From positions 1-64,000 of the IMG/VR virus record IMGVR_UViG_3300008108_000181: a stretch of DNA of 64,000 bases; one strand, given 5' to 3'. Under the pieces are notes generated by a model that was not told the DNA's origin, ran no database searches, and worked only from the letters and a program-made list of their open reading frames with translations. Both the position numbers and the translations under genes were made by a program. The DNA is from a virus. Shown here in pieces: positions 50,831 to 59,595 of the stretch. How positions within the stretch are numbered: position 1 is the stretch's first letter; the number at the start of each line of letters is the position of its first letter.

Positions 50831-51447
50831 ATCAAATCAGGTTCAAAGTACTTTTTATAAAAAATTTCAGATAATGATTTATGTGATTTAAATGAAAGAT
50901 GATAATCTACTATTTGTCCTTCAGTTGCATCTTTTATAGTTTCAAGACCTTTTAAATCAGTCTGAACATTCCATAAAATTACTTTTTCACATCCCTTTTG
51001 TATGAGGAGTTTTTTAATCCATTCAAATCTTTTTATCTGTCTATTCTTATATAAAATGTTATCTGCAAAGTAATACTGGAAATTTATGATGGTTTCAAAT
51101 TCATCATTCGTTAATCCATTTTCGGTTTTACTTTTTGAAAAATCGTGAACTATGGACTCAAAATGATTATTAATTGGTACATCAAATCGGTGGGCGTGTG
51201 TCATTCCAATAAACACATAATCATCTTTACTTATCTCTTTCCACGTATCAATTATAGTATCTATGATTGTATCGTTTGAACTTCCATTCTTTCCAAGATT
51301 TTTTAGTTCAACATTTAATTTATCACTTAACCATACTGGCCAAACCCCATCTCCTGATTTGTAATAACTTTCATAATACTCATCATTTGGATGACACCCA
51401 TGTCCTGCAGTATTACTATCACCAAATGTCCATAGTGTAGATTTCAT
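50827..51447 (-). CDS. SGNH/GDSL hydrolase-like protein
   Basis: FGDSNTAG, NLGKNGSSN and DYHLS. Confidence 0.65.
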   Translation of the reverse strand: MKSTLWTFGDSNTAGHGCHPNDEYYESYYKSGDGVWPVWLSDKLNVELKNLGKNGSSNDTIIDTIIDTWKEISKDDYVFIGMTHAHRFDVPINNHFESIVHDFSKSKTENGLTNDEFETIINFQYYFADNILYKNRQIKRFEWIKKLLIQKGCEKVILWNVQTDLKGLETIKDATEGQIVDYHLSFKSHKSLSEIFYKKYFEPDLI

Positions 51448-51884
51448 AATTTAGAAGTATAACCAATACTTTCAACTAACTCAAACACAACATTATTCCA
51501 ATCTTCTATTTCAACATGGATTGAATTATATTTTTCTAACATAACACCACTAACTTTTCTGTAAAACCAAGTTGGTGAATACTTTGGTCTTGGTATTTGT
51601 TTGGTGACATATAAGTTATAACCAAAACAAGTATCTGAAGTAAGTTCTTTAAACCAGACATATCCAATTGGTGTATTGTTTAATTTTAATAAAAATAAAT
51701 AATGTTTTGATTCTAATCTTAATTTGCAATCATCTATATCAAACATCCCATCCCACTTATATTCTGAATTAAATGAATCTATAAGTGATTGAATATCGGA
51801 AATATAATTTTCTATATCCACTACAAGATGAGTGGTTAGTTCTTCTTTTATAAAATTATCTTTATGTAAAATATATTTTCTCAT
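51444..51884 (-). CDS. Putative GNAT-fold protein
   Basis: PIGYVWF...YNLYV...V...N....L.ESIGY pattern. Confidence 0.45.
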   Translation of the reverse strand: MRKYILHKDNFIKEELTTHLVVDIENYISDIQSLIDSFNSEYKWDGMFDIDDCKLRLESKHYLFLLKLNNTPIGYVWFKELTSDTCFGYNLYVTKQIPRPKYSPTWFYRKVSGVMLEKYNSIHVEIEDWNNVVFELVESIGYTSKL

Positions 51885-52621
51885 CAGAATAATGTTTTTA
51901 CATTTTTTACTTTATCATAAGGTAAATAAATAGAATCATATTTTTCTTTAAATTCATCATTAAGTTTTAGTTTTGTATCAAAGTGTTGGCTAGTATTTAT
52001 ATTCATTAATTTAAAATCCATATTTAATTTATTTGATACCCACTCTTCTAATTTATACAACTCATTAAAATCAAACCATATTATATTAGGGTCATGGTTG
52101 TGCCACTTTGAATACGGAAATAATAAAATTTTTAACCAGTTTATACCATGTTGATTAACATTTAATTTATATTTTTTTATAAAAACTTGAACAATTACTT
52201 CTACACTTTCTGCTGATTGTAAGTCATATTTTTTATACCATAATAATTCATCAATAGTAAGATTTGATAATTTATTAAATGTATCTAAATGATTATATCT
52301 ATGAAACATTTTTAATATATGTTTCCATAAGGATATAAATCTTTCATACTTATTTCTCTTAACAGATATAACATCATAATGATATCCAAATTTTTCTTTT
52401 AAAATACGTATTTGCTCATGACCATGTACAAAGTCTATATCAAACTCTTGAAAATTTATTTGATTTATATTATCATATTGAGTGTGAATTAATTGATTTT
52501 CTATATTAAACTCGGTATGATAGTGTTTAATTTCTAAATTTTGTTTTACACATGATGCCATAAATGCAGTAGATGCACATCTTGGTAATGATAAATAAAT
52601 AAATTTATTTTCTACTAACAT
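51884..52621 (-). CDS. Sulfotransferase-like protein
   Basis: FIYLSLPRCASTAF (PSB-loop variant) and SVKRNKYERFISLW. Confidence 0.6.
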   Translation of the reverse strand: MLVENKFIYLSLPRCASTAFMASCVKQNLEIKHYHTEFNIENQLIHTQYDNINQINFQEFDIDFVHGHEQIRILKEKFGYHYDVISVKRNKYERFISLWKHILKMFHRYNHLDTFNKLSNLTIDELLWYKKYDLQSAESVEVIVQVFIKKYKLNVNQHGINWLKILLFPYSKWHNHDPNIIWFDFNELYKLEEWVSNKLNMDFKLMNINTSQHFDTKLKLNDEFKEKYDSIYLPYDKVKNVKTLF

Positions 52622-53269
52622 TTAAATTATTGATTTTAAGTCTGTTTGTATTATACTAACATTACCAGAAACTGAAATTCTCTCAACTCCTTGTGTGTAA
52701 AATGGTGATACATAATGAATCAAATATGATGGAAATATAATTACCTCTCCCTTTTTAGGAGTGTGTTGAATCAAAGCTGATGGGGATAACAAATTATTTA
52801 CCAATTGAGTGTAAGGGGTTACATCGAGTTGTGTATTATTTCCATAAAAAAAAGATATTGTACCTGGTCGATATGATGCTTCACTAAATGGTTGTTCATT
52901 TATTATTTCTTGTGGGAAATCTAAATAAATTACAAATGATATTTCTCCATTATGATGTCTGTGTGGTGGATTATGTTCACCTGATTTTTGTCTATTAATC
53001 CATAAACTATTTAATGTTGTTTTATAGTTCGAATGGATAATACCTCTTTCAATTCGAATCCATTCGATATATTCTTTAATTTTTATTAATATATCTGATT
53101 CAAATTTCTTTTTTAATAATTCAGAATACGTTTTTTCGTTTTCAATATGACCAGCTAGGCTTGATTTAGCATCATCTCTTTGTTGTACACCGTCTAATAA
53201 CAAATCTGCCCTTAATTTTTCAGAGATAGTACTAATTAATACAGGTGGTCCAAATTTTAATTCTTTCAT
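52622..53269 (-). CDS. 2OG-Fe(II) oxygenase-like protein
   Basis: WINRQ..GEHNPPHRH...ISFVIYL...IIFPSYLIHYV...RISVSGN. Confidence 0.8.
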   Translation of the reverse strand: MKELKFGPPVLISTISEKLRADLLLDGVQQRDDAKSSLAGHIENEKTYSELLKKKFESDILIKIKEYIEWIRIERGIIHSNYKTTLNSLWINRQKSGEHNPPHRHHNGEISFVIYLDFPQEIINEQPFSEASYRPGTISFFYGNNTQLDVTPYTQLVNNLLSPSALIQHTPKKGEVIIFPSYLIHYVSPFYTQGVERISVSGNVSIIQTDLKSII

Positions 53270-53298
53270 ATCAACTTATATGTTTTTTTTTTAGAAAA

Positions 53299-54042
53299 TT
53301 ATATTAGTGTTTTATTATTTTTTTGAATATCATAATAATCATAAATGTCATTATATCTTTTTATAAACTCATCATTTAATTTTAATTCACATTCAAAATG
53401 CTGACTTCCATTTGATTTTTCCATTTTAAATGGTTTATTGGTTTTATTAGATACCCAATCCTCCAATTCTGTAAAATTTCCAAAATCAAAGTATTTTATT
53501 TTTGGATTATTATTATGCCAATACGATGTTGGTCTAAATGCAATTTGTAACATATTGATAAAATAATCATCAACGTATTTTTCAATACCATTTCTTTTAC
53601 AAAACTCAATAAATACTAATTTTTCAGATTCATGTGAAATTAAATCGAAAGTTTTAAAAAATAATATATCATCTAAATTTAATTTTTTAAGTATATTTAC
53701 CAGTTCAATTGGATACCGATACCGTAATCGTTCCATTTCTACCATATCAATTGTGTGCTTCCATACCGAAATAAATCTTTCATATCTATTTCGTTTAATT
53801 GATATTATATCATATTTGTTTCCAAATTTATCAATTAACTCACTTGATTTTTCGTGAACATGAAATATATGGTCAGCTAATTCTTCATTATTCATAGATA
53901 AATCTATAAAATGTGCCGATTCATCATACCGTTTTTGATTAAAATGATTTATTTCAAATCCATGTCGAATACATGATATATAAAAAGAAAAAGATGCACA
54001 TCTTGGTAAAGACACAAATAAAAATTTATTTTCTACTAACAT
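53299..54042 (-). CDS. Sulfotransferase-like protein (paralog of 51884..52621)
   Basis: MLVENKFLFVSLPRCASFSF...IKRNRYERFISVWKH, clearly similar to 51884..52621 along its length. Confidence 0.6.
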   Translation of the reverse strand: MLVENKFLFVSLPRCASFSFYISCIRHGFEINHFNQKRYDESAHFIDLSMNNEELADHIFHVHEKSSELIDKFGNKYDIISIKRNRYERFISVWKHTIDMVEMERLRYRYPIELVNILKKLNLDDILFFKTFDLISHESEKLVFIEFCKRNGIEKYVDDYFINMLQIAFRPTSYWHNNNPKIKYFDFGNFTELEDWVSNKTNKPFKMEKSNGSQHFECELKLNDEFIKRYNDIYDYYDIQKNNKTLI

Positions 54043-54687
54043 TTATATCAATGATTTTTGTTTTTTTATATATTCAAATCCAGTATTTCCAGCAAATACT
54101 ATTCTATCTATGTTAGATTTTGGTGCATTATTAGCAGCATGGGGAAGTGATGCCTCCATTATTATTAAATCATCTTCTTCTGGTCTAATCCAATAATCTT
54201 CTCCAGTTTTTCCTTTTATATATAAAACACTATCATCTCCTTCTACAATATCAGGCATTTGTATATAATATACCCATGTGTAATGTGGAAAAAAACCTTT
54301 TTGTTTTTTTTTAATTTCAATATGAGTATGGTATCTAGTATCATCTTTTGTTATGTGATACACATCATTATCTCCTTTTACAAATTCGCGTTGTACTGGT
54401 TTTTTTGAACGAGTTACATTTATCCACGCATCTGCATTAAATTTATTGTATATATTATAATTTTTAATGTATAGTGATTTACACATCTTCCAACTTTTAT
54501 TCATAATTTCATCAAATATAGCATCCATACCATCATAGTATGGATATGCATCGACCTCTTTAAATGGACTAAAAAAATCTTCCATTTCCATTTTATAAAA
54601 CCATTTTAATAAATGTTGTTTATTATCTAACATATTTAATTTTGTTTTCCAAATATAGGTAGAATTATCAAAATATATCTTTTCCAT
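54043..54687 (-). CDS. 2OG-Fe(II) oxygenase-like protein
   Basis: WINV...YHTH...YTWVYYIQMP...P.EDDLIIM...LPH......RIVFAGN. Confidence 0.65.
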   Translation of the reverse strand: MEKIYFDNSTYIWKTKLNMLDNKQHLLKWFYKMEMEDFFSPFKEVDAYPYYDGMDAIFDEIMNKSWKMCKSLYIKNYNIYNKFNADAWINVTRSKKPVQREFVKGDNDVYHITKDDTRYHTHIEIKKKQKGFFPHYTWVYYIQMPDIVEGDDSVLYIKGKTGEDYWIRPEEDDLIIMEASLPHAANNAPKSNIDRIVFAGNTGFEYIKKQKSLI

Positions 54688-54688
54688 A

Positions 54689-55969
54689 TTATATAATATT
54701 TTTGTATATAGTATTTCTTTCTATAATAAAGTTATTATGAATTATACTTTTTAAAAATGAATTTTCATTGTTAATAAAACTCATTAATTTACTATGTGTG
54801 GTATTACTCCAATCAATACATAGCTGTCTATTAGTTTCATAATTTTTCATAAATTCTTCTACGAATAAAACAAATTTTTCAGGATTACCGTTTACCCTTT
54901 TTATTTCATTATAAAATGGATGTGAATGTGTATCTAATATTTCAGATACTACATCTAATGGATATTGATGAGTAGATATAAAAGGAATGTTAGCCAGTAA
55001 GAATCCATATGTTTTTTCAGATAAATAGTTTGATGTAAAATCACCTTCTTTCCAATCCCAAGTTTCGGATAGTATATGCATTTTAGACATAGGAAGAATT
55101 CTCATCAAATAATCCAAATAATGCTCTATGTTTTCAATCCAAGATATATCATCAAAATCATCTCCTTTATTAATATTGTAGTTGATATTTTTTTCTAATT
55201 GTTTAGAATACATAGTAAATTCTTTATTAATACAATTATCTACTCTCGAAAGATATATTCTTTCATCATTTAGTTTTGCTAATCCATTTATGATACTAGT
55301 TCTATTTCTCTTATGATACCTCATAGAAAAACATAAATCATACGGTTGATTTAATTTACTAAATATGTTTTTAAATTCATAATACCAACGAATTGATAGG
55401 AGTTCATTCCATTGATGTATTGTATTTGTCAAACAAAAAAAATGATTTGGATATTTGGTTTTCACGAACTCGTTAAAGATTACATTATCTGTTATGATAA
55501 AATGATTTTTTAATCTATCTATCTGAACCTCCAAATCCATCACATTTGGATAGTTAATCCCATCATATTTAATGATAGATTTTTCAGTTCGTAATAAAAA
55601 AATAAACCAATTACTTTTATTTTCCAAAGTATCGGCTATCCATTTCATTATTGGAATATCATTAATACCAAATTCTGCTCCCCATTTTCCACGATGAGAA
55701 GTATCACCTTCTTTACGATTTACACAATCAATAATTTTTAACTTATCATCTTGGTTTATTTGTTCTAAACAAGTTAAAAAATCTAATATATGATATCCAT
55801 CGGTATTATCATTTATAAAAGGATTGAATACTAATTCCAAATCTTGCTTTTCATATCTGCAAAAAATAGAACCAATATTATTAGTTAGTTCATATCTCCT
55901 ATTAGTTGTTTTATGAAACAACTTATAAAAAAGAGAAATGGAATAAAAATGATGAATGTAAAATTTCAT
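54689..55969 (-). CDS. Putative glycosyltransferase-like protein (GT10-like motif)
   Basis: HILSETW...YLSEKTYGFLLANIPFIS. Confidence 0.45.
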   Translation of the reverse strand: MKFYIHHFYSISLFYKLFHKTTNRRYELTNNIGSIFCRYEKQDLELVFNPFINDNTDGYHILDFLTCLEQINQDDKLKIIDCVNRKEGDTSHRGKWGAEFGINDIPIMKWIADTLENKSNWFIFLLRTEKSIIKYDGINYPNVMDLEVQIDRLKNHFIITDNVIFNEFVKTKYPNHFFCLTNTIHQWNELLSIRWYYEFKNIFSKLNQPYDLCFSMRYHKRNRTSIINGLAKLNDERIYLSRVDNCINKEFTMYSKQLEKNINYNINKGDDFDDISWIENIEHYLDYLMRILPMSKMHILSETWDWKEGDFTSNYLSEKTYGFLLANIPFISTHQYPLDVVSEILDTHSHPFYNEIKRVNGNPEKFVLFVEEFMKNYETNRQLCIDWSNTTHSKLMSFINNENSFLKSIIHNNFIIERNTIYKNII

Positions 55970-55993: not shown

Positions 55994-56377
55994 CTAAATT
56001 ATTTTATTTTTTCTGATATCCCAGTATGTTTGCCAATATTTAGTTCCATAATCATGACACAATTCATCATCTGGTTCAATTTCCTTTAATGAATAAAATT
56101 CAATAAATTTATCATCTTTTACTTTCCAATTGATATTAGGAGAATCTGAATGATTATAAATAGCACCATACCCTAATGGAAAGATTCGTTTGGTGGTGTG
56201 TTCATCAATTTGAAACAAATAATCTAGTAATGGATTGATATTAGAATTATAAATTGGTAAAAAATAACAAGTTTCAACTATCTCACCTATATTAATTTTT
56301 TCCAAAGTAAATACACCAAAACCCTTTACTTCGTCTATATACCTTATTTCTAATTTAATTTTATTAAAAATTTTCAT
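55994..56377 (-). CDS. SET-domain methyltransferase
   Basis: KGFGVF....I..GE, YNHSDSPN and EI.PDDELCHDYG. Confidence 0.85.
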   Translation of the reverse strand: MKIFNKIKLEIRYIDEVKGFGVFTLEKINIGEIVETCYFLPIYNSNINPLLDYLFQIDEHTTKRIFPLGYGAIYNHSDSPNINWKVKDDKFIEFYSLKEIEPDDELCHDYGTKYWQTYWDIRKNKII

Positions 56378-56405
56378 TTATTAAAAAAATAAGCACAACC
56401 CTTAT

Positions 56406-56687
56406 CTATATTAAACTATTTTTTTGTTTTCGTGTATTTCCAAAGACATCGGAATCTTCAACATCTAACCATTTATGAAGAGGACACGCATCGTATCTTG
56501 GTGAGAATATTTTTTTACTAATAGGACACCCACACTCATCACATTTCAGATACCCACCAATCCCAGTAACCTTCTTATCACATCCGTTGCATATCTCTAA
56601 TCGTCCTTCTGCTAATTTTAATTGAGATTCGGTGGGATTGTTAGCTATAATCCAAGACTCTGCTATCTCCTTTACTTTATCAAACAT
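56406..56687 (-). CDS. Small Cys-rich metal-binding protein (DUF6171-like)
   Basis: RLEICNGC...CDECGC...CPLHKW. Confidence 0.65.
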   Translation of the reverse strand: MFDKVKEIAESWIIANNPTESQLKLAEGRLEICNGCDKKVTGIGGYLKCDECGCPISKKIFSPRYDACPLHKWLDVEDSDVFGNTRKQKNSLI

Positions 56688-56705
56688 ATAACTAATTATT
56701 AATTA

Positions 56706-56855
56706 TTATAAATGGTTTTCCTTTACGGCATTTACAAATAAATTAATTTTATCTGAAATAGCCGATTTTACAGCAGAGTTTGTATTTATTCTCTGTCTTT
56801 TAAATAATTCAGTATAATCTGAATATGTTATATTTTTGTTAATTTCGGTTGCCAT
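56706..56855 (-). CDS. Small hypothetical protein (49 aa)
   Basis: MATEINKNITYSDYTELFKRQRINTNSAVKSAISDKINLFVNAVKENHL starts 2 nt after the stop of the 645-aa gene. Confidence 0.55.
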   Translation of the reverse strand: MATEINKNITYSDYTELFKRQRINTNSAVKSAISDKINLFVNAVKENHL

Positions 56856-56856
56856 A

Positions 56857-58794
56857 TTAATTTAGTTTTTTAAATTCTACATCTATTTTATTGTAATCAA
56901 CTACATATAATCCATTTTCATTTAAAGATAATGAATCTTCATAATTAGTTCCAATCAACTCTTGAGCAATAACTCCTTGATATAATCCTTCTTCGTTTTT
57001 GTAATTAAATTGATAAACATTTAACCCAAAATCAGATACACCAATTAAAGTCAAATTTTCTTTATATTGAATATCTGATTTTTGGTCATTACAATAAGCA
57101 GTATTTGATATATACCCACTATGCGGTAAGTAGGTAAATACCGCGGCATTTTTTCCATATACGACTCTTGAACATCCTCCGTAGTAATTCGACCCCCAAT
57201 AACCCGGACATGCAGTATTGTATGCATTATCAATGCAAGTATACCAAGCAACACAAAATGCTCCTCCGGCACCTCCGTGTGTATTTACAGCAGTCCAATA
57301 TCTACAATCATAACCAAAGTTATGTGTAACTAACCCATATCTACTTTGATTTTCAGTTTCTTCCAAAGTAAGGAATAAATCCAATTCTTCAAAATCCAAA
57401 GTGTATCCAGTAAATTTATCAAATCTAAAATTTACATTGGTTATAGTAGTAATAATTAATTGATTAGTAGTGGTATCGAAGGTAAGAATTTCATCACCGA
57501 CTTTTAACTCTGAATATGTTTGAAATTTAACATAATCACCATCTTTTACCATTATTTCGGCATGGACAACATCACTAAATGTAGAATTAGTATCAGTTTC
57601 AAATGTAACTAATACTCCATAAAAATCAGTAGTTGATTTGTTTTCTAAAAATGATGATGATACTTGATAATCTGTAATTATTGAATCATATGAAGAGGAC
57701 CACGCTACCAAACTAGGTGTATCACTTTCATCAGGTAATTCTGCAAATAAAATAGATTTTACTTCATCACCTATTTGTAAATTGGGTGCCAATTCAATAC
57801 TACCATCTGGTAATAGGACTTTAGTATTTTGGGTAGCACTTAACTTTATTGCAACTTGATTAGCTGTTGTATAAAATTTTTGAAGATATCTCATTCTATC
57901 CCAAGGTTGAACTTGATTGGTATCATCAAAATCTGCTGAAGATAGAAGTGGTAAAATTGTTGTTTTTTCTATAACTTGTAAGTTAATAATATCCAAATTC
58001 GAACCATATAATAAATCTATGCTTCTATATGTATTTAATCTACCATCAAATAAATCGGTATCATTGAAAATATATTCTTGGATATATTCATCAACTTCCA
58101 AATTAGATTTTAAACTATTTAATTCTTCAAGTGTACTAATCTTATATAATTTTGGATAGATTTTATTATCAGAAGGAGTTACTCTTTTTTTAATACAATA
58201 GTTAGGATGGTTTCCATTATCTCTTAATGTAGTACCAATACTATCTATACCAAATTCATTATCATCAATATAACATTTTGGAATAGAATTATTATCTGCA
58301 TCATACATTAACTTTAAAAATCCCCAATTATCTCTAGCGTAATTATCATCAATTAATGCAGTAGTATCAAATGATAATCGTATGATTAGTTTATCTTCTG
58401 TATCTTCTACAAAAGGAATGGTAGTAGAAGTGGCATCTGTGCTTATTGTTACTAATTCTATATTACTTCCAGATAAAAATGATTTTAAATACTGATTAAA
58501 AGTAAAATTAAAAGGTATGTTTGGTAATGAGTTAGCAGTACGATTTGAATTTATACTACGAAGTTCATTAAGTTCATAATTAAGTGTGTTAGCTGTTTCC
58601 GCGGACCTATTGGTTTCATTTGAAATTAATACAACTTCTGTAAAATTATTTGAAATTACAAAATTTTCAAATGATGCTGAATCAAAATTAAGAGACCATT
58701 GGGTATCTAATTGAATATTTGTATTTGTTTCTAATGCTTTGAAGGTACCATCGGTATCTTTCATAAAATCAGTACCTATAATAACTGCTCTCAT
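56857..58794 (-). CDS. Multidomain self-processing protein: ATP-grasp-like domain, Hint domain, Cys-rich peptide, peptidase S74 domain
   Basis: GTDFMKDTDGTFKALETNTN and YCIKK...EYIQEYI (ATP-grasp-like). SATQNTKVLLPDG...LQIGDEV...ELKVGDEI...LVTHN (Hint). SDIQYKENL...VYQFNY...YQGVIAQEL...VDYNKI (S74). Confidence 0.75.
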   Translation of the reverse strand: MRAVIIGTDFMKDTDGTFKALETNTNIQLDTQWSLNFDSASFENFVISNNFTEVVLISNETNRSAETANTLNYELNELRSINSNRTANSLPNIPFNFTFNQYLKSFLSGSNIELVTISTDATSTTIPFVEDTEDKLIIRLSFDTTALIDDNYARDNWGFLKLMYDADNNSIPKCYIDDNEFGIDSIGTTLRDNGNHPNYCIKKRVTPSDNKIYPKLYKISTLEELNSLKSNLEVDEYIQEYIFNDTDLFDGRLNTYRSIDLLYGSNLDIINLQVIEKTTILPLLSSADFDDTNQVQPWDRMRYLQKFYTTANQVAIKLSATQNTKVLLPDGSIELAPNLQIGDEVKSILFAELPDESDTPSLVAWSSSYDSIITDYQVSSSFLENKSTTDFYGVLVTFETDTNSTFSDVVHAEIMVKDGDYVKFQTYSELKVGDEILTFDTTTNQLIITTITNVNFRFDKFTGYTLDFEELDLFLTLEETENQSRYGLVTHNFGYDCRYWTAVNTHGGAGGAFCVAWYTCIDNAYNTACPGYWGSNYYGGCSRVVYGKNAAVFTYLPHSGYISNTAYCNDQKSDIQYKENLTLIGVSDFGLNVYQFNYKNEEGLYQGVIAQELIGTNYEDSLSLNENGLYVVDYNKIDVEFKKLN

Positions 58795-58821
58795 AATTGA
58801 TTTTTTTGTTTAAATTCATTT

Positions 58822-58832
58822 TATATAAATAT
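58822..58832 (-). promoter_or_regulatory. Putative late promoter motif ATATTTATATA heading the 58794-49679 cluster
   Basis: Same motif as seen before the structural genes. Confidence 0.6.
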
Positions 58833-58854
58833 ACCAAACCCCTAAAATAGGTAT

Positions 58855-59595
58855 TTATTTACCATTCTTAAACGATCCTGATATATTTGGTAACATAGAA
58901 TAGAACTCGTCATACGCTTCCAATAGGGAATCCACAACTGGGTGTCTATGGTTAGTAAGTAGAGTATGAGAATCCATATCTTTGATTTTTTTAGACGCAG
59001 ATACCAAGAACTTAAACCCACTTTCTCCTTTTGATTTTAAATCTACTTGTTGTGTATCACCACATACTACCATCTTACTTCTAATACCCAAACGAGATGT
59101 AATCATTTCCATTTGTTCGTTAGTACAATTCTGTGCTTCATCAACAATAATAAATGAATCCAAGAAAGTTCTTCCTCTCATGAATGCAAGTGGTACAATT
59201 TCAACTGTCCCATTTTCTAAAATCTCATCAATTTTTTGTTTGTTGTAAAGTTGGTAGAAGTTTGCATAGACTGGTTGCATCCAAGGTTCCATCTTTTCTC
59301 TAAGGTCTCCTGGTAAGAATCCAATTTCTTCCTTACTAACGGTTGGTCTTGTGATGATGATTTGTTTTACTTCTTTCTTAAACAACATATCCAATGCAAC
59401 CTGACATGCTAGAAGTGTTTTACCACTACCTGCTTTACCACTCAGGATGGTAATTGCATTACTTAAAATCTTTTCTTTGGCTTGTTTTTGTTCTTCATTT
59501 AACTGAAGTTGGAATTTAATAGAACCTTTTGGTCTTTTTTGTTCTGCGATTTGTTCGGTTAATTCTTTATGTTTTGGTGATATATTTGGAGCCAT
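58855..59595 (-). CDS. phoH: PhoH-family ATPase
   Basis: GKAGSGKT, ITRP, IGFLPGDLREKMEPW, PLAFMRGRTF, DEAQN and GDTQQVDL. Confidence 0.95.
   Translation of the reverse strand: MAPNISPKHKELTEQIAEQKRPKGSIKFQLQLNEEQKQAKEKILSNAITILSGKAGSGKTLLACQVALDMLFKKEVKQIIITRPTVSKEEIGFLPGDLREKMEPWMQPVYANFYQLYNKQKIDEILENGTVEIVPLAFMRGRTFLDSFIIVDEAQNCTNEQMEMITSRLGIRSKMVVCGDTQQVDLKSKGESGFKFLVSASKKIKDMDSHTLLTNHRHPVVDSLLEAYDEFYSMLPNISGSFKNGK

Follow-up and report, generated by a model that had tools for sequence, protein, structure and literature searches.

Borosins are enzyme-fused precursors of ribosomally synthesized and post-translationally modified peptides (RiPPs), graspetides are made by ATP-grasp enzymes, and in the Tetrahymena BUBL locus a cargo lies between two bacterial intein-like (BIL) domains. 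In polymorphic toxins, as a passage of PMC3482391 describes, a Hint domain stands just upstream of a variable C-terminal cargo and is thought to release that cargo. BIL domains without a +1 nucleophile are described in part of PMC4031507, those of type A ending in His-Asn, and cleavage products dominate. For the S74 chaperones, a section of PMC8326128 gives the Ser-Lys dyads S911/K916 (endoNF) and S587/K592 (MyRF), and reports that cleavage requires the trimer and that MyRF trimerisation is driven mainly by a C-terminal coiled coil. According to an excerpt of PMC12568646, Cp1B has been proven by biochemistry to be an amide ligase of the ATP-grasp kind, and its sequence has no detectable identity to those of other characterised ATP-grasp enzymes. 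Here we describe a gene in a 64-kb stretch of viral DNA (the window; positions 1 to 64,000 of IMG/VR record IMGVR_UViG_3300008108_000181) that encodes a protein of 645 amino acids (aa) with a ligase-like domain, a Hint domain, a small Cys-rich module and an S74-like domain. Its folds, conserved residues, family layout and gene neighbourhood were established computationally, and from these we infer two self-cleavages, disulfide bonds and any ligase step. The protein belongs to a ligase-Hint-cargo family that is apparently confined to phages, and we consider it probable that it is a single-chain self-processing precursor that frees its own 80-aa domain. The open reading frame (ORF) and its parts are as follows.

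56857 to 58794, minus strand: precursor ORF of 645 aa, from ORF translation, with the stop codon at 56857-56859.
57865 to 58794, minus strand: residues 1-310, circularly permuted ATP-grasp-like (amide ligase-like) domain, from a structure model and its matches.
57841 to 57864, minus strand: residues 311-318, linker between the ligase-like domain and Hint, from the alignment (mean pairwise identity 0.40).
57319 to 57840, minus strand: residues 319-492, Hint domain ending in Thr-His-Asn, from the model, Foldseek and VIA-align.
57079 to 57318, minus strand: residues 493-572, module of 80 aa that is hypervariable, rich in Cys, Tyr and Gly and predicted to be released, from composition and alignment.
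56860 to 57078, minus strand: residues 573-645, short Peptidase_S74-like C-terminal domain with Ser573/Lys578, from homologue matches and conserved residues.

A first-pass annotation, made from the DNA letters, had proposed that this ORF excises a small peptide lying between a Hint and an S74 domain. The ORF, the sequences it quoted, its coordinates and the composition it gave for the module (6 Cys, 11 Tyr and 11 Gly in 80 aa; unmodified mass 8798.6 Da) are all correct. The computational checks that it suggested were all favourable. The domain account, however, had omitted the N-terminal ATP-grasp-like domain (residues 1-310), and its framing missed that S74 is optional within a wider family. 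The whole precursor gave no match above threshold in Pfam or NCBIfam, and nothing significant was returned by PDB sequence and profile searches.

The Hint fold was recognised in an AlphaFold2 model of residues 309-645 built from 108 sequences, which had a mean predicted local distance difference test score (pLDDT) of 85.2. Foldseek returned 44 PDB matches at E<=1e-3, those listed being inteins, BIL domains and the autoprocessing domain of hedgehog (1at0, with a template modelling score (TM) of 0.81 on the target). Using VIA-align against 48,161 chains, the TvoVMA intein 4o1s was aligned at Z 17.1 with a root-mean-square deviation (rmsd) of 1.9 A over 146 aa, followed by hedgehog (Z 16.4), the Clostridium BIL domain 2lwy (16.2) and BIL2 6tmm (15.7). 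Z values of at least 8 were reached by 29 chains, and the matches listed were Hint-fold domains, almost all of them inteins, hedgehog or BIL. A Hint domain had been proposed at 57840-57319 in the first-pass annotation, and the aligned ranges agree with it, placing Hint position 1 at Ser319 and the last position at Asn492. Among the 108 homologues, the end of the domain was strongly conserved (T490 in 105, H491 in 106 and N492 in all 108). Position 319 was Ser in 70 and Asp in 38, so that an N-terminal nucleophile is not conserved; in the top 150 cluster representatives of the profile search described below, Hint position 1 was any residue but never Cys. The residue after N492 was Tyr in 96 and Phe in 12 homologues and never Cys, Ser or Thr, which bears out the earlier remark that a +1 splicing nucleophile is absent. 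His-Asn remained invariant in an alignment taking in relatives of 26-37% identity, which have no N-terminal nucleophile, and it was found in most of the top 150 cluster representatives. Since the C-terminal His-Asn is kept without a +1 nucleophile, and BIL domains offer a precedent, cleavage after Asn492 without splicing is predicted.

The relationship of residues 573-645 to Peptidase_S74, also proposed in the first-pass annotation, was supported through homologues. PF13884 matched 18 of 24 of them at E<=0.1 (best 2.1e-5), and at least four homologues carry a precomputed PF13884 match. The window protein itself matched PHROG 6121 (E 3.6e-6). A tblastn search found a "peptidase_S74 domain-containing structural protein" of Rhizobium phage RHph_Y1_10, in which S74 likewise occupies the final ~70 residues, and BLASTP against an annotated S74 phage protein aligned K-S-D-x3-K (E 2e-9). 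S573, D574 and K578 are each invariant in the 108 homologues, so the catalytic-type residues named earlier (with N492 and H491 in the Hint) are conserved as expected, and the spacing from Ser573 to Lys578 is the same as in the dyads of endoNF and MyRF. One relative (L026) terminates right after the ...Q-K of its module, precisely at the predicted Lys|Ser site, which supports the S74 cut. A protein-atlas search with residues 493-645 gave Peptidase_S74 clusters at 0.81-0.82, values below 0.9 being leads only. S74 chains were absent among the VIA-align matches listed, which has no weight against S74 because the Hint domain accounted for that list.

The module between these two domains is the most variable part of the protein. 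Mean pairwise identity among 118 full-length homologues fell to 0.23 in the module, compared with 0.56 in the N-domain, 0.43 in Hint and 0.51 in S74, the pattern of hypervariable middle and conserved flanks that the first-pass annotation had put forward for checking. The difference persisted between close relatives: where two N-domains shared at least 95% identity (n=10), modules were 81% identical vs 96-97% for Hint and S74, and in pairs at 85-95% N-domain identity (n=155), the module was 57% identical vs 81% for Hint and 85% for S74. Module length ranged from 69 to 108 aa. C497, C520, C541, C568 and K572 were nevertheless each kept in 108/108 homologues, and the number of Cys was even in 116 of 118 modules of the S74 clade (range 4 to 12). 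A single Lys was present in 65 of 118 modules, and must be K572 because that residue is invariant. In the AlphaFold2 model the module forms beta strands (pLDDT ~72-91), with weak beta-sandwich structural matches to viral turret and C1q-like domains (Z 3.7-4.1, none higher). The model and the Cys counts suggest that the product would more likely be a folded disulfide-bonded mini-domain than a loose peptide.

A diversity-generating retroelement was considered as the source of this variability and rejected: no second copy of the module DNA was present in the window, no RVT_1 match was obtained in the 81-kb record (46% complete), and module length varies. In the lake metagenome run X18, one contig matched both flanks and skipped 225 bases within 57094-57320, very nearly the exact extent of the module. 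This gap fits a strain with a replaced module and is a weak hint of one, the shorter matching side being only 36 bases.

Residues 1-310 are the best-conserved part of the precursor. A model of residues 1-315 (pLDDT 84.2, pTM 0.80) found its best VIA-align matches in ATP-grasp ligases of the glutathione-synthetase, GspS and YgiC type (3k1t, Z 7.9; 7uka, 7.2; 5oeu, 7.2; 2io7, 7.1; Cp1B, 6.6), none of them at Z>=8. The top Foldseek match was yeast glutathione synthetase 1m0w (E 4.7e-5, TM 0.34). E22, N24, R139, D149, P197, K202 and R257 are invariant across 73 diverse family members. The E-x-N pair is N-terminal and a Q-E-Y-I-like stretch follows later, an order compatible with a permuted ATP-grasp; eukaryotic glutathione synthetase is itself permuted. 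E22, N24, K202, R139, R257 and D149 may correspond to Mg and ATP ligands, an assignment based on known motifs and not on residue-level superposition. Protein-atlas feature matches to ATP-grasp clusters (0.93) are a lead only.

A profile search over 1.84 billion cluster representatives placed the window protein in a wider family, with 4,412 matches at E<=1e-3, 964 at <=1e-10 and 181 at <=1e-30 (clusters at 50% identity). The best 150 representatives were sorted by the sequence that follows the Hint Asn. Short Cys-rich tails directly past His-Asn (21-84 aa, median 43) ended 70 of them; a second Hint was present in 18 and S74 in 14 (the search pattern missed a few more); 24 were fragments or lacked the Asn, and the other 24 had tiny Lys-containing tails, large non-Cys tails or were some of the missed S74 forms. 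The Cys count is even in every one of the 70 short tails, compared with a mean of 35 and a maximum of 50 tails after shuffling. Every tail also contains Lys, whereas 5000 shuffles left 16.1 tails without it on average and never fewer than 6; exactly one Lys is found in 47 (shuffle maximum 38), and Lys is the final residue in 23. The second Hints exceed Pfam cut-offs and have Cys as their first residue and His-Asn as their last two, with K, KK or KKF behind them, and five members (P0187, P0192, P0208, P0220 and P0226) have a Hint-peptide-Hint layout. By tblastn, the second Hint of P0292 is similar to inteins located in the terminase and helicase genes of phages, and the rest of that protein found no match. 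Three consecutive Hints behind the ligase-like domain were observed in P0282, P0289 and P0260; in several triple-Hint members the first His-Asn abuts Cys1 of the next Hint, and the sole "cargo" after the last Hint is a Lys.

S74 is likewise distributed unevenly. In 36 related viral loci the precursor carries it in 27 and is without it in 9, one of which (L031) has a short Pro-rich end in its place. In a FastTree tree of the N-domain and Hint (82 sequences, midpoint root, supports not read), L026, L031 and P0165 were nested within the main S74 clade, and a second small S74 group (P0174 and P0177) sat among short-tailed members. The placement of S74-less and S74-bearing members therefore suggests that S74 has been lost and gained repeatedly. 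S74 or a second Hint is thus an optional end-piece of a ligase-Hint-cargo family.

The family has no name in Pfam, NCBIfam or PHROGs. A tblastn search of 50,697 deposited phage records gave no match to P0001 or to the short-tailed relative P0181, in a set from which genomes close to that of the window may be missing. A single peptide pattern run against 185,579 species genomes found one locus (L037, VHCC01000082.1, 3,697 bases), in a Pelagibacterales metagenome-assembled genome, which is probably a misbinned phage contig; one locus from one search pattern is a weak sign of absence from cells. Within the searches made, the family is apparently restricted to phages and was found in uncultured aquatic phages only. 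One member with a large non-Cys tail (P0300, 1129 aa) has a BACON domain within that tail (E 4.5e-5, narrowly missing the cut-off); since this domain is typical of Bacteroidota surface proteins, it fits a Bacteroidota host. The PhoH protein of the window is closest to a Flavobacterium phage PhoH (58.7% identity).

In the mechanism that we propose, the Hint domain, its N-terminal nucleophile lost, would therefore be limited to cutting at its own C-terminal end. Asn492 would cyclise with the help of His491 and the Asn492|Phe493 bond would break, a Phe or Tyr at +1 making splicing impossible. Next, the short S74-like domain would cut Lys572|Ser573 by means of Ser573/Lys578, in the manner of endosialidase-type chaperones. 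The predicted outcome is a free 80-residue, disulfide-bonded and beta-sandwich-like mini-domain, ending in the conserved Lys of the family and having a fast-evolving surface.

Several results weigh against this mechanism. The Cys of a cytoplasmic phage protein would remain reduced until lysis. The ATP-grasp scores are moderate (at the best Z of 7.9, rmsd 4.8 A over 230 aa and TM ~0.35), a Pfam scan across 73 diverse members assigned the N-domain to no family, RimK was matched by two of the 73 at E 0.055, which does not support ATP-grasp, and the window protein matches none of the NCBIfam and Pfam ATP-grasp models. Neither does the window protein match any Hint family in Pfam; PT-HINT was matched by one of 24 members at E 0.02, and the block-B-like His411 is replaced by Gln in 7 of 108 homologues. 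The PF13884 score of the window protein, 17 bits, is below the cut-off of 22. Moreover, S74 domains typically occur in virion fibres, and the PHROG matches bear the names of structural proteins. The S74-like domain has just 73 aa, and the monomer model contains only short helices after residue 573; judged from this model, the mismatch of a short helix-poor domain with the trimer requirement is the main weakness of the S74 assignment.

Two small genes follow the precursor gene closely and were included in the proposal.

56706 to 56855, minus strand: 49-aa ORF with its ATG one base past the precursor stop, a conserved partner, from locus comparison.
56406 to 56687, minus strand: 93-aa zinc-ribbon-like, weakly DUF6171-like partner, whose homologue adjoins the precursor gene in 36/36 loci.

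A homologous ORF of 37-50 aa stands directly behind the precursor gene in all 36 viral loci; no PHROG family was matched by the 49-aa ORF. The 93-aa protein has invariant Cys at positions 33, 36, 49, 52, 54 and 68, and its homologues are 36-82% identical to the copy of the window. PF19668 matched 18 of 27 members of this family (best 8.7e-5, below the cut-off), phrog_13558 matched the 93-aa protein with E 7.2e-8, and no papers on DUF6171 were found. No downstream immunity gene co-varying with the cargo was detected, both constant followers being conserved while the cargo is hypervariable. In the proposed mechanism the ATP-grasp-like domain, the 49-aa protein and the 93-aa zinc-ribbon protein would be parts of one system, and the substrate of the ligase would probably be the cargo or an end newly created on it.

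The ligase-like domain might cyclise, tag or attach the cargo. A specific extension of the mechanism is a ligase-coupled, protease-free maturation, in which the amine generated by Hint and a Lys end set by S74, a stop codon or a second Hint would be joined by the ATP-grasp domain. We hold this to be doubtful; if true, it would yield a mini-protein knotted by disulfides and either cyclised or bound covalently to a protein of the phage or the host. With its hypervariable surface, such a product would form a new class among the modified peptides or proteins that viruses encode. That covalent joining is the very purpose of the system seems to us unlikely. The ligase would then cyclise the module (head-to-tail or through a Lys isopeptide) or attach it to a phage or host protein: the Hint cut would give an alpha-amine beside the fused ligase, the S74 cut would expose the Lys572 carboxylate, and the 49-aa partner could be a target. 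The ligase-like domain being the best conserved, with E22, N24, K202, R139 and R257 invariant in 73 members, argues for joining, and its structural neighbours (GspS, YgiC, glutathione synthetase and Cp1B) are carboxylate-amine ligases. So do the Lys residues, with at least one in 70/70 short tails, exactly one in 47, a terminal Lys in 23 and K572 in 108/108 homologues. Asp and Glu are missing from 17 of the 70 tails, whose C-terminal carboxylate is therefore their only one, and the end of the cargo is set in three ways, by a stop codon, S74 or a second Hint. However, A-rich DNA ahead of the coupled next gene can favour Lys codons and may partly explain Lys near gene ends, and the conserved Lys is internal in one subgroup. 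For these two reasons the frequent C-terminal Lys was given less weight as evidence for action of the ligase at the C-terminus. Activation of the C-terminus by the ligase would also be redundant wherever a second Hint could already achieve it.

Two further explanations dispense with release of the module. The protein could be a trimeric fibre or decoration protein of the virion, in which S74 folds a receptor-binding knob, Hint serves as a spacer without being cleaved and the module remains on the N-terminal part. Part of PMC8326128 places S74 domains at the ends of phage fibres and spikes, the PHROG matches include proteins named virion structural protein, DNA ejection protein and tail fiber protein, and a hypervariable module with weak turret and C1q-like matches resembles receptor-binding tips. 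But the N-terminal domain is enzyme-like, unlike a fibre shaft, and the persistence of His-Asn at 26-37% identity would be unexpected in a mere spacer; most relatives have no S74 and end in tails of 21-84 aa, the tree points to several S74 gains or losses, and the gene sits among enzyme-like genes, outside the baseplate block. Alternatively, both self-cleaving domains could be inactive relics in a full-length ligase with a variable C-terminal binding domain, as the loss of the Hint N-terminal nucleophile and the scores of both domains of the window protein below Pfam cut-offs might suggest. Against such decay, N492, H491, S573 and K578 show little or no variation next to a module that varies freely, and one relative ends precisely at the S74 cut. 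Because the catalytic residues are conserved and the relatives have the shapes described, both explanations are less likely: we regard a fibre protein as quite improbable and a pair of relics as very improbable indeed. The self-processing precursor is thus the explanation that we retain.

Other genes around the precursor gene were compared with those of the 36 related loci.

51444 to 55969, minus strand: neighbours of 426, 214 (2-oxoglutarate (2OG)-oxygenase-like), 247, 245 and 146 aa, from their recurrence in the 36 loci.
53299 to 54042 and 51884 to 52621, minus strand: the 247-aa and 245-aa proteins, paralogues that share an L-P-R-C-A-S/T-x-S-F start and have no family match.
55994 to 56377, minus strand: SET-domain protein of 127 aa, whose match to Pfam SET (E 2.8e-12) exceeds the cut-off, two genes downstream of the 93-aa partner.

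Homologues recurred in 27 loci for the 426-aa and 247-aa proteins, 26 for the 146-aa, 23 for the 245-aa and 17 for the 214-aa protein, and in only five for the SET protein; the upstream PhoH gene recurred in just three. For the neighbours of 426 to 146 aa, Pfam gave weak 2OG-Fe(II) matches only. A resemblance of the paralogues to a sulfotransferase motif had been considered, and a sulfotransferase identity of the 247-aa protein was dropped for want of a family match. Between 49679 and 56687 of the window, many unrelated proteins end with a basic stretch and a hydrophobic end (...NKTLI, ...QKSLI, ...KNKII, ...KNSLI), and the same ends were observed in downstream ORFs of L029, L031, L032 and L034. 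They may reflect a DNA motif shared by gene ends, or a tag.

The parent viral record has 81,196 bases and a CheckV completeness of 46%, the window being part of it. Phage genes carried by the window include those for a baseplate wedge, an SbcC-like nuclease, a helicase, a carbamoyltransferase, PhoH and a dCMP deaminase. Near-identical DNA is present in lake and freshwater metagenomes, with at least half of the sampled words in 18 rows, and any part of the window DNA was found in 20 rows from 14 studies. Two contigs from RNA libraries were identical to gene parts 56959-57143 and 57541-57700; they do not establish transcription, because DNA can occur in such libraries. A scan of 56300-59000 was uninformative, with 16 promoter-like sites vs 19.6 expected and no terminators.

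Release of a variable C-terminal cargo by Hint, in polymorphic toxins, and autocleavage by S74, in fibres, are known already. A Hint and an S74 domain around one cargo, with a fused ligase, Cys-rich cargoes and partner genes, were not found together in the literature searched. Searches for Hint domains with ATP-grasp in phages, or as RiPP precursors, returned nothing relevant, those for ATP-grasp with intein-like and cysteine-rich found nothing, and in the passage of PMC12220804 that mentions Peptidase_S74 together with "hint", the latter is the ordinary word. If the cuts occur, this would be a natural protein that excises an internal domain by two unrelated self-cleaving chemistries (Asn cyclisation by Hint and the Ser-Lys dyad of S74) while tethered to a ligase-like enzyme. 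It would open a new source of disulfide-rich, fast-evolving mini-proteins and a new route of peptide maturation in viruses. The phage could use the product in host recognition, competition or virion decoration, and the cleavage-only Hint, the minimal S74 domain and the compact ligase are possible parts for protein engineering.

In relation to type A BIL and PT-HINT domains, the phage protein shares the Hint fold, the terminal His-Asn, the absence of a +1 nucleophile and the position of Hint directly before a variable C-terminal cargo. It differs in having no conserved N-terminal Cys or Ser nucleophile, in that its upstream part is an ATP-grasp-like enzyme and not a secretion or filament domain, and in its cargo, which is a small Cys-rich module and not an enzyme toxin; it is also phage-encoded, with downstream genes that are conserved instead of varying with the cargo. 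With the S74 chaperones (endoNF and the ICA domain of MyRF) it has in common the C-terminal site, the Ser-Asp pair and the Lys five residues past the Ser. Unlike them, its S74-like domain is of 73 aa, below the Pfam cut-off and without a long C-terminal helix in the monomer model, it is preceded by a Cys-rich beta-sandwich-like module and not by a triple beta-helix, and a Hint stands on the other side of the cargo.

The BUBL locus has a small cargo between self-processing domains, both ends of which are made without an external protease, and the family members with a second Hint have this layout literally, as Hint-peptide-Hint. In the window protein, by contrast, S74 would take the place of the downstream Hint, the cargo does not resemble ubiquitin and a ligase-like domain is fused upstream. 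Glutathione synthetase, GspS and the YgiC-YjfC ligases are the best structural matches of residues 1-315 and have a similar permuted-like motif order, but the phage domain has no sequence-family match, comprises ~310 aa vs 370-600, and is fused to Hint and cargo. As in borosins and graspetides, a domain resembling a modifying enzyme and its probable peptide substrate are on one chain, among enzyme-like gene neighbours; here, however, release is predicted to be carried out by the built-in Hint and S74 domains with no separate protease, and the 80-aa cargo is predicted to fold.

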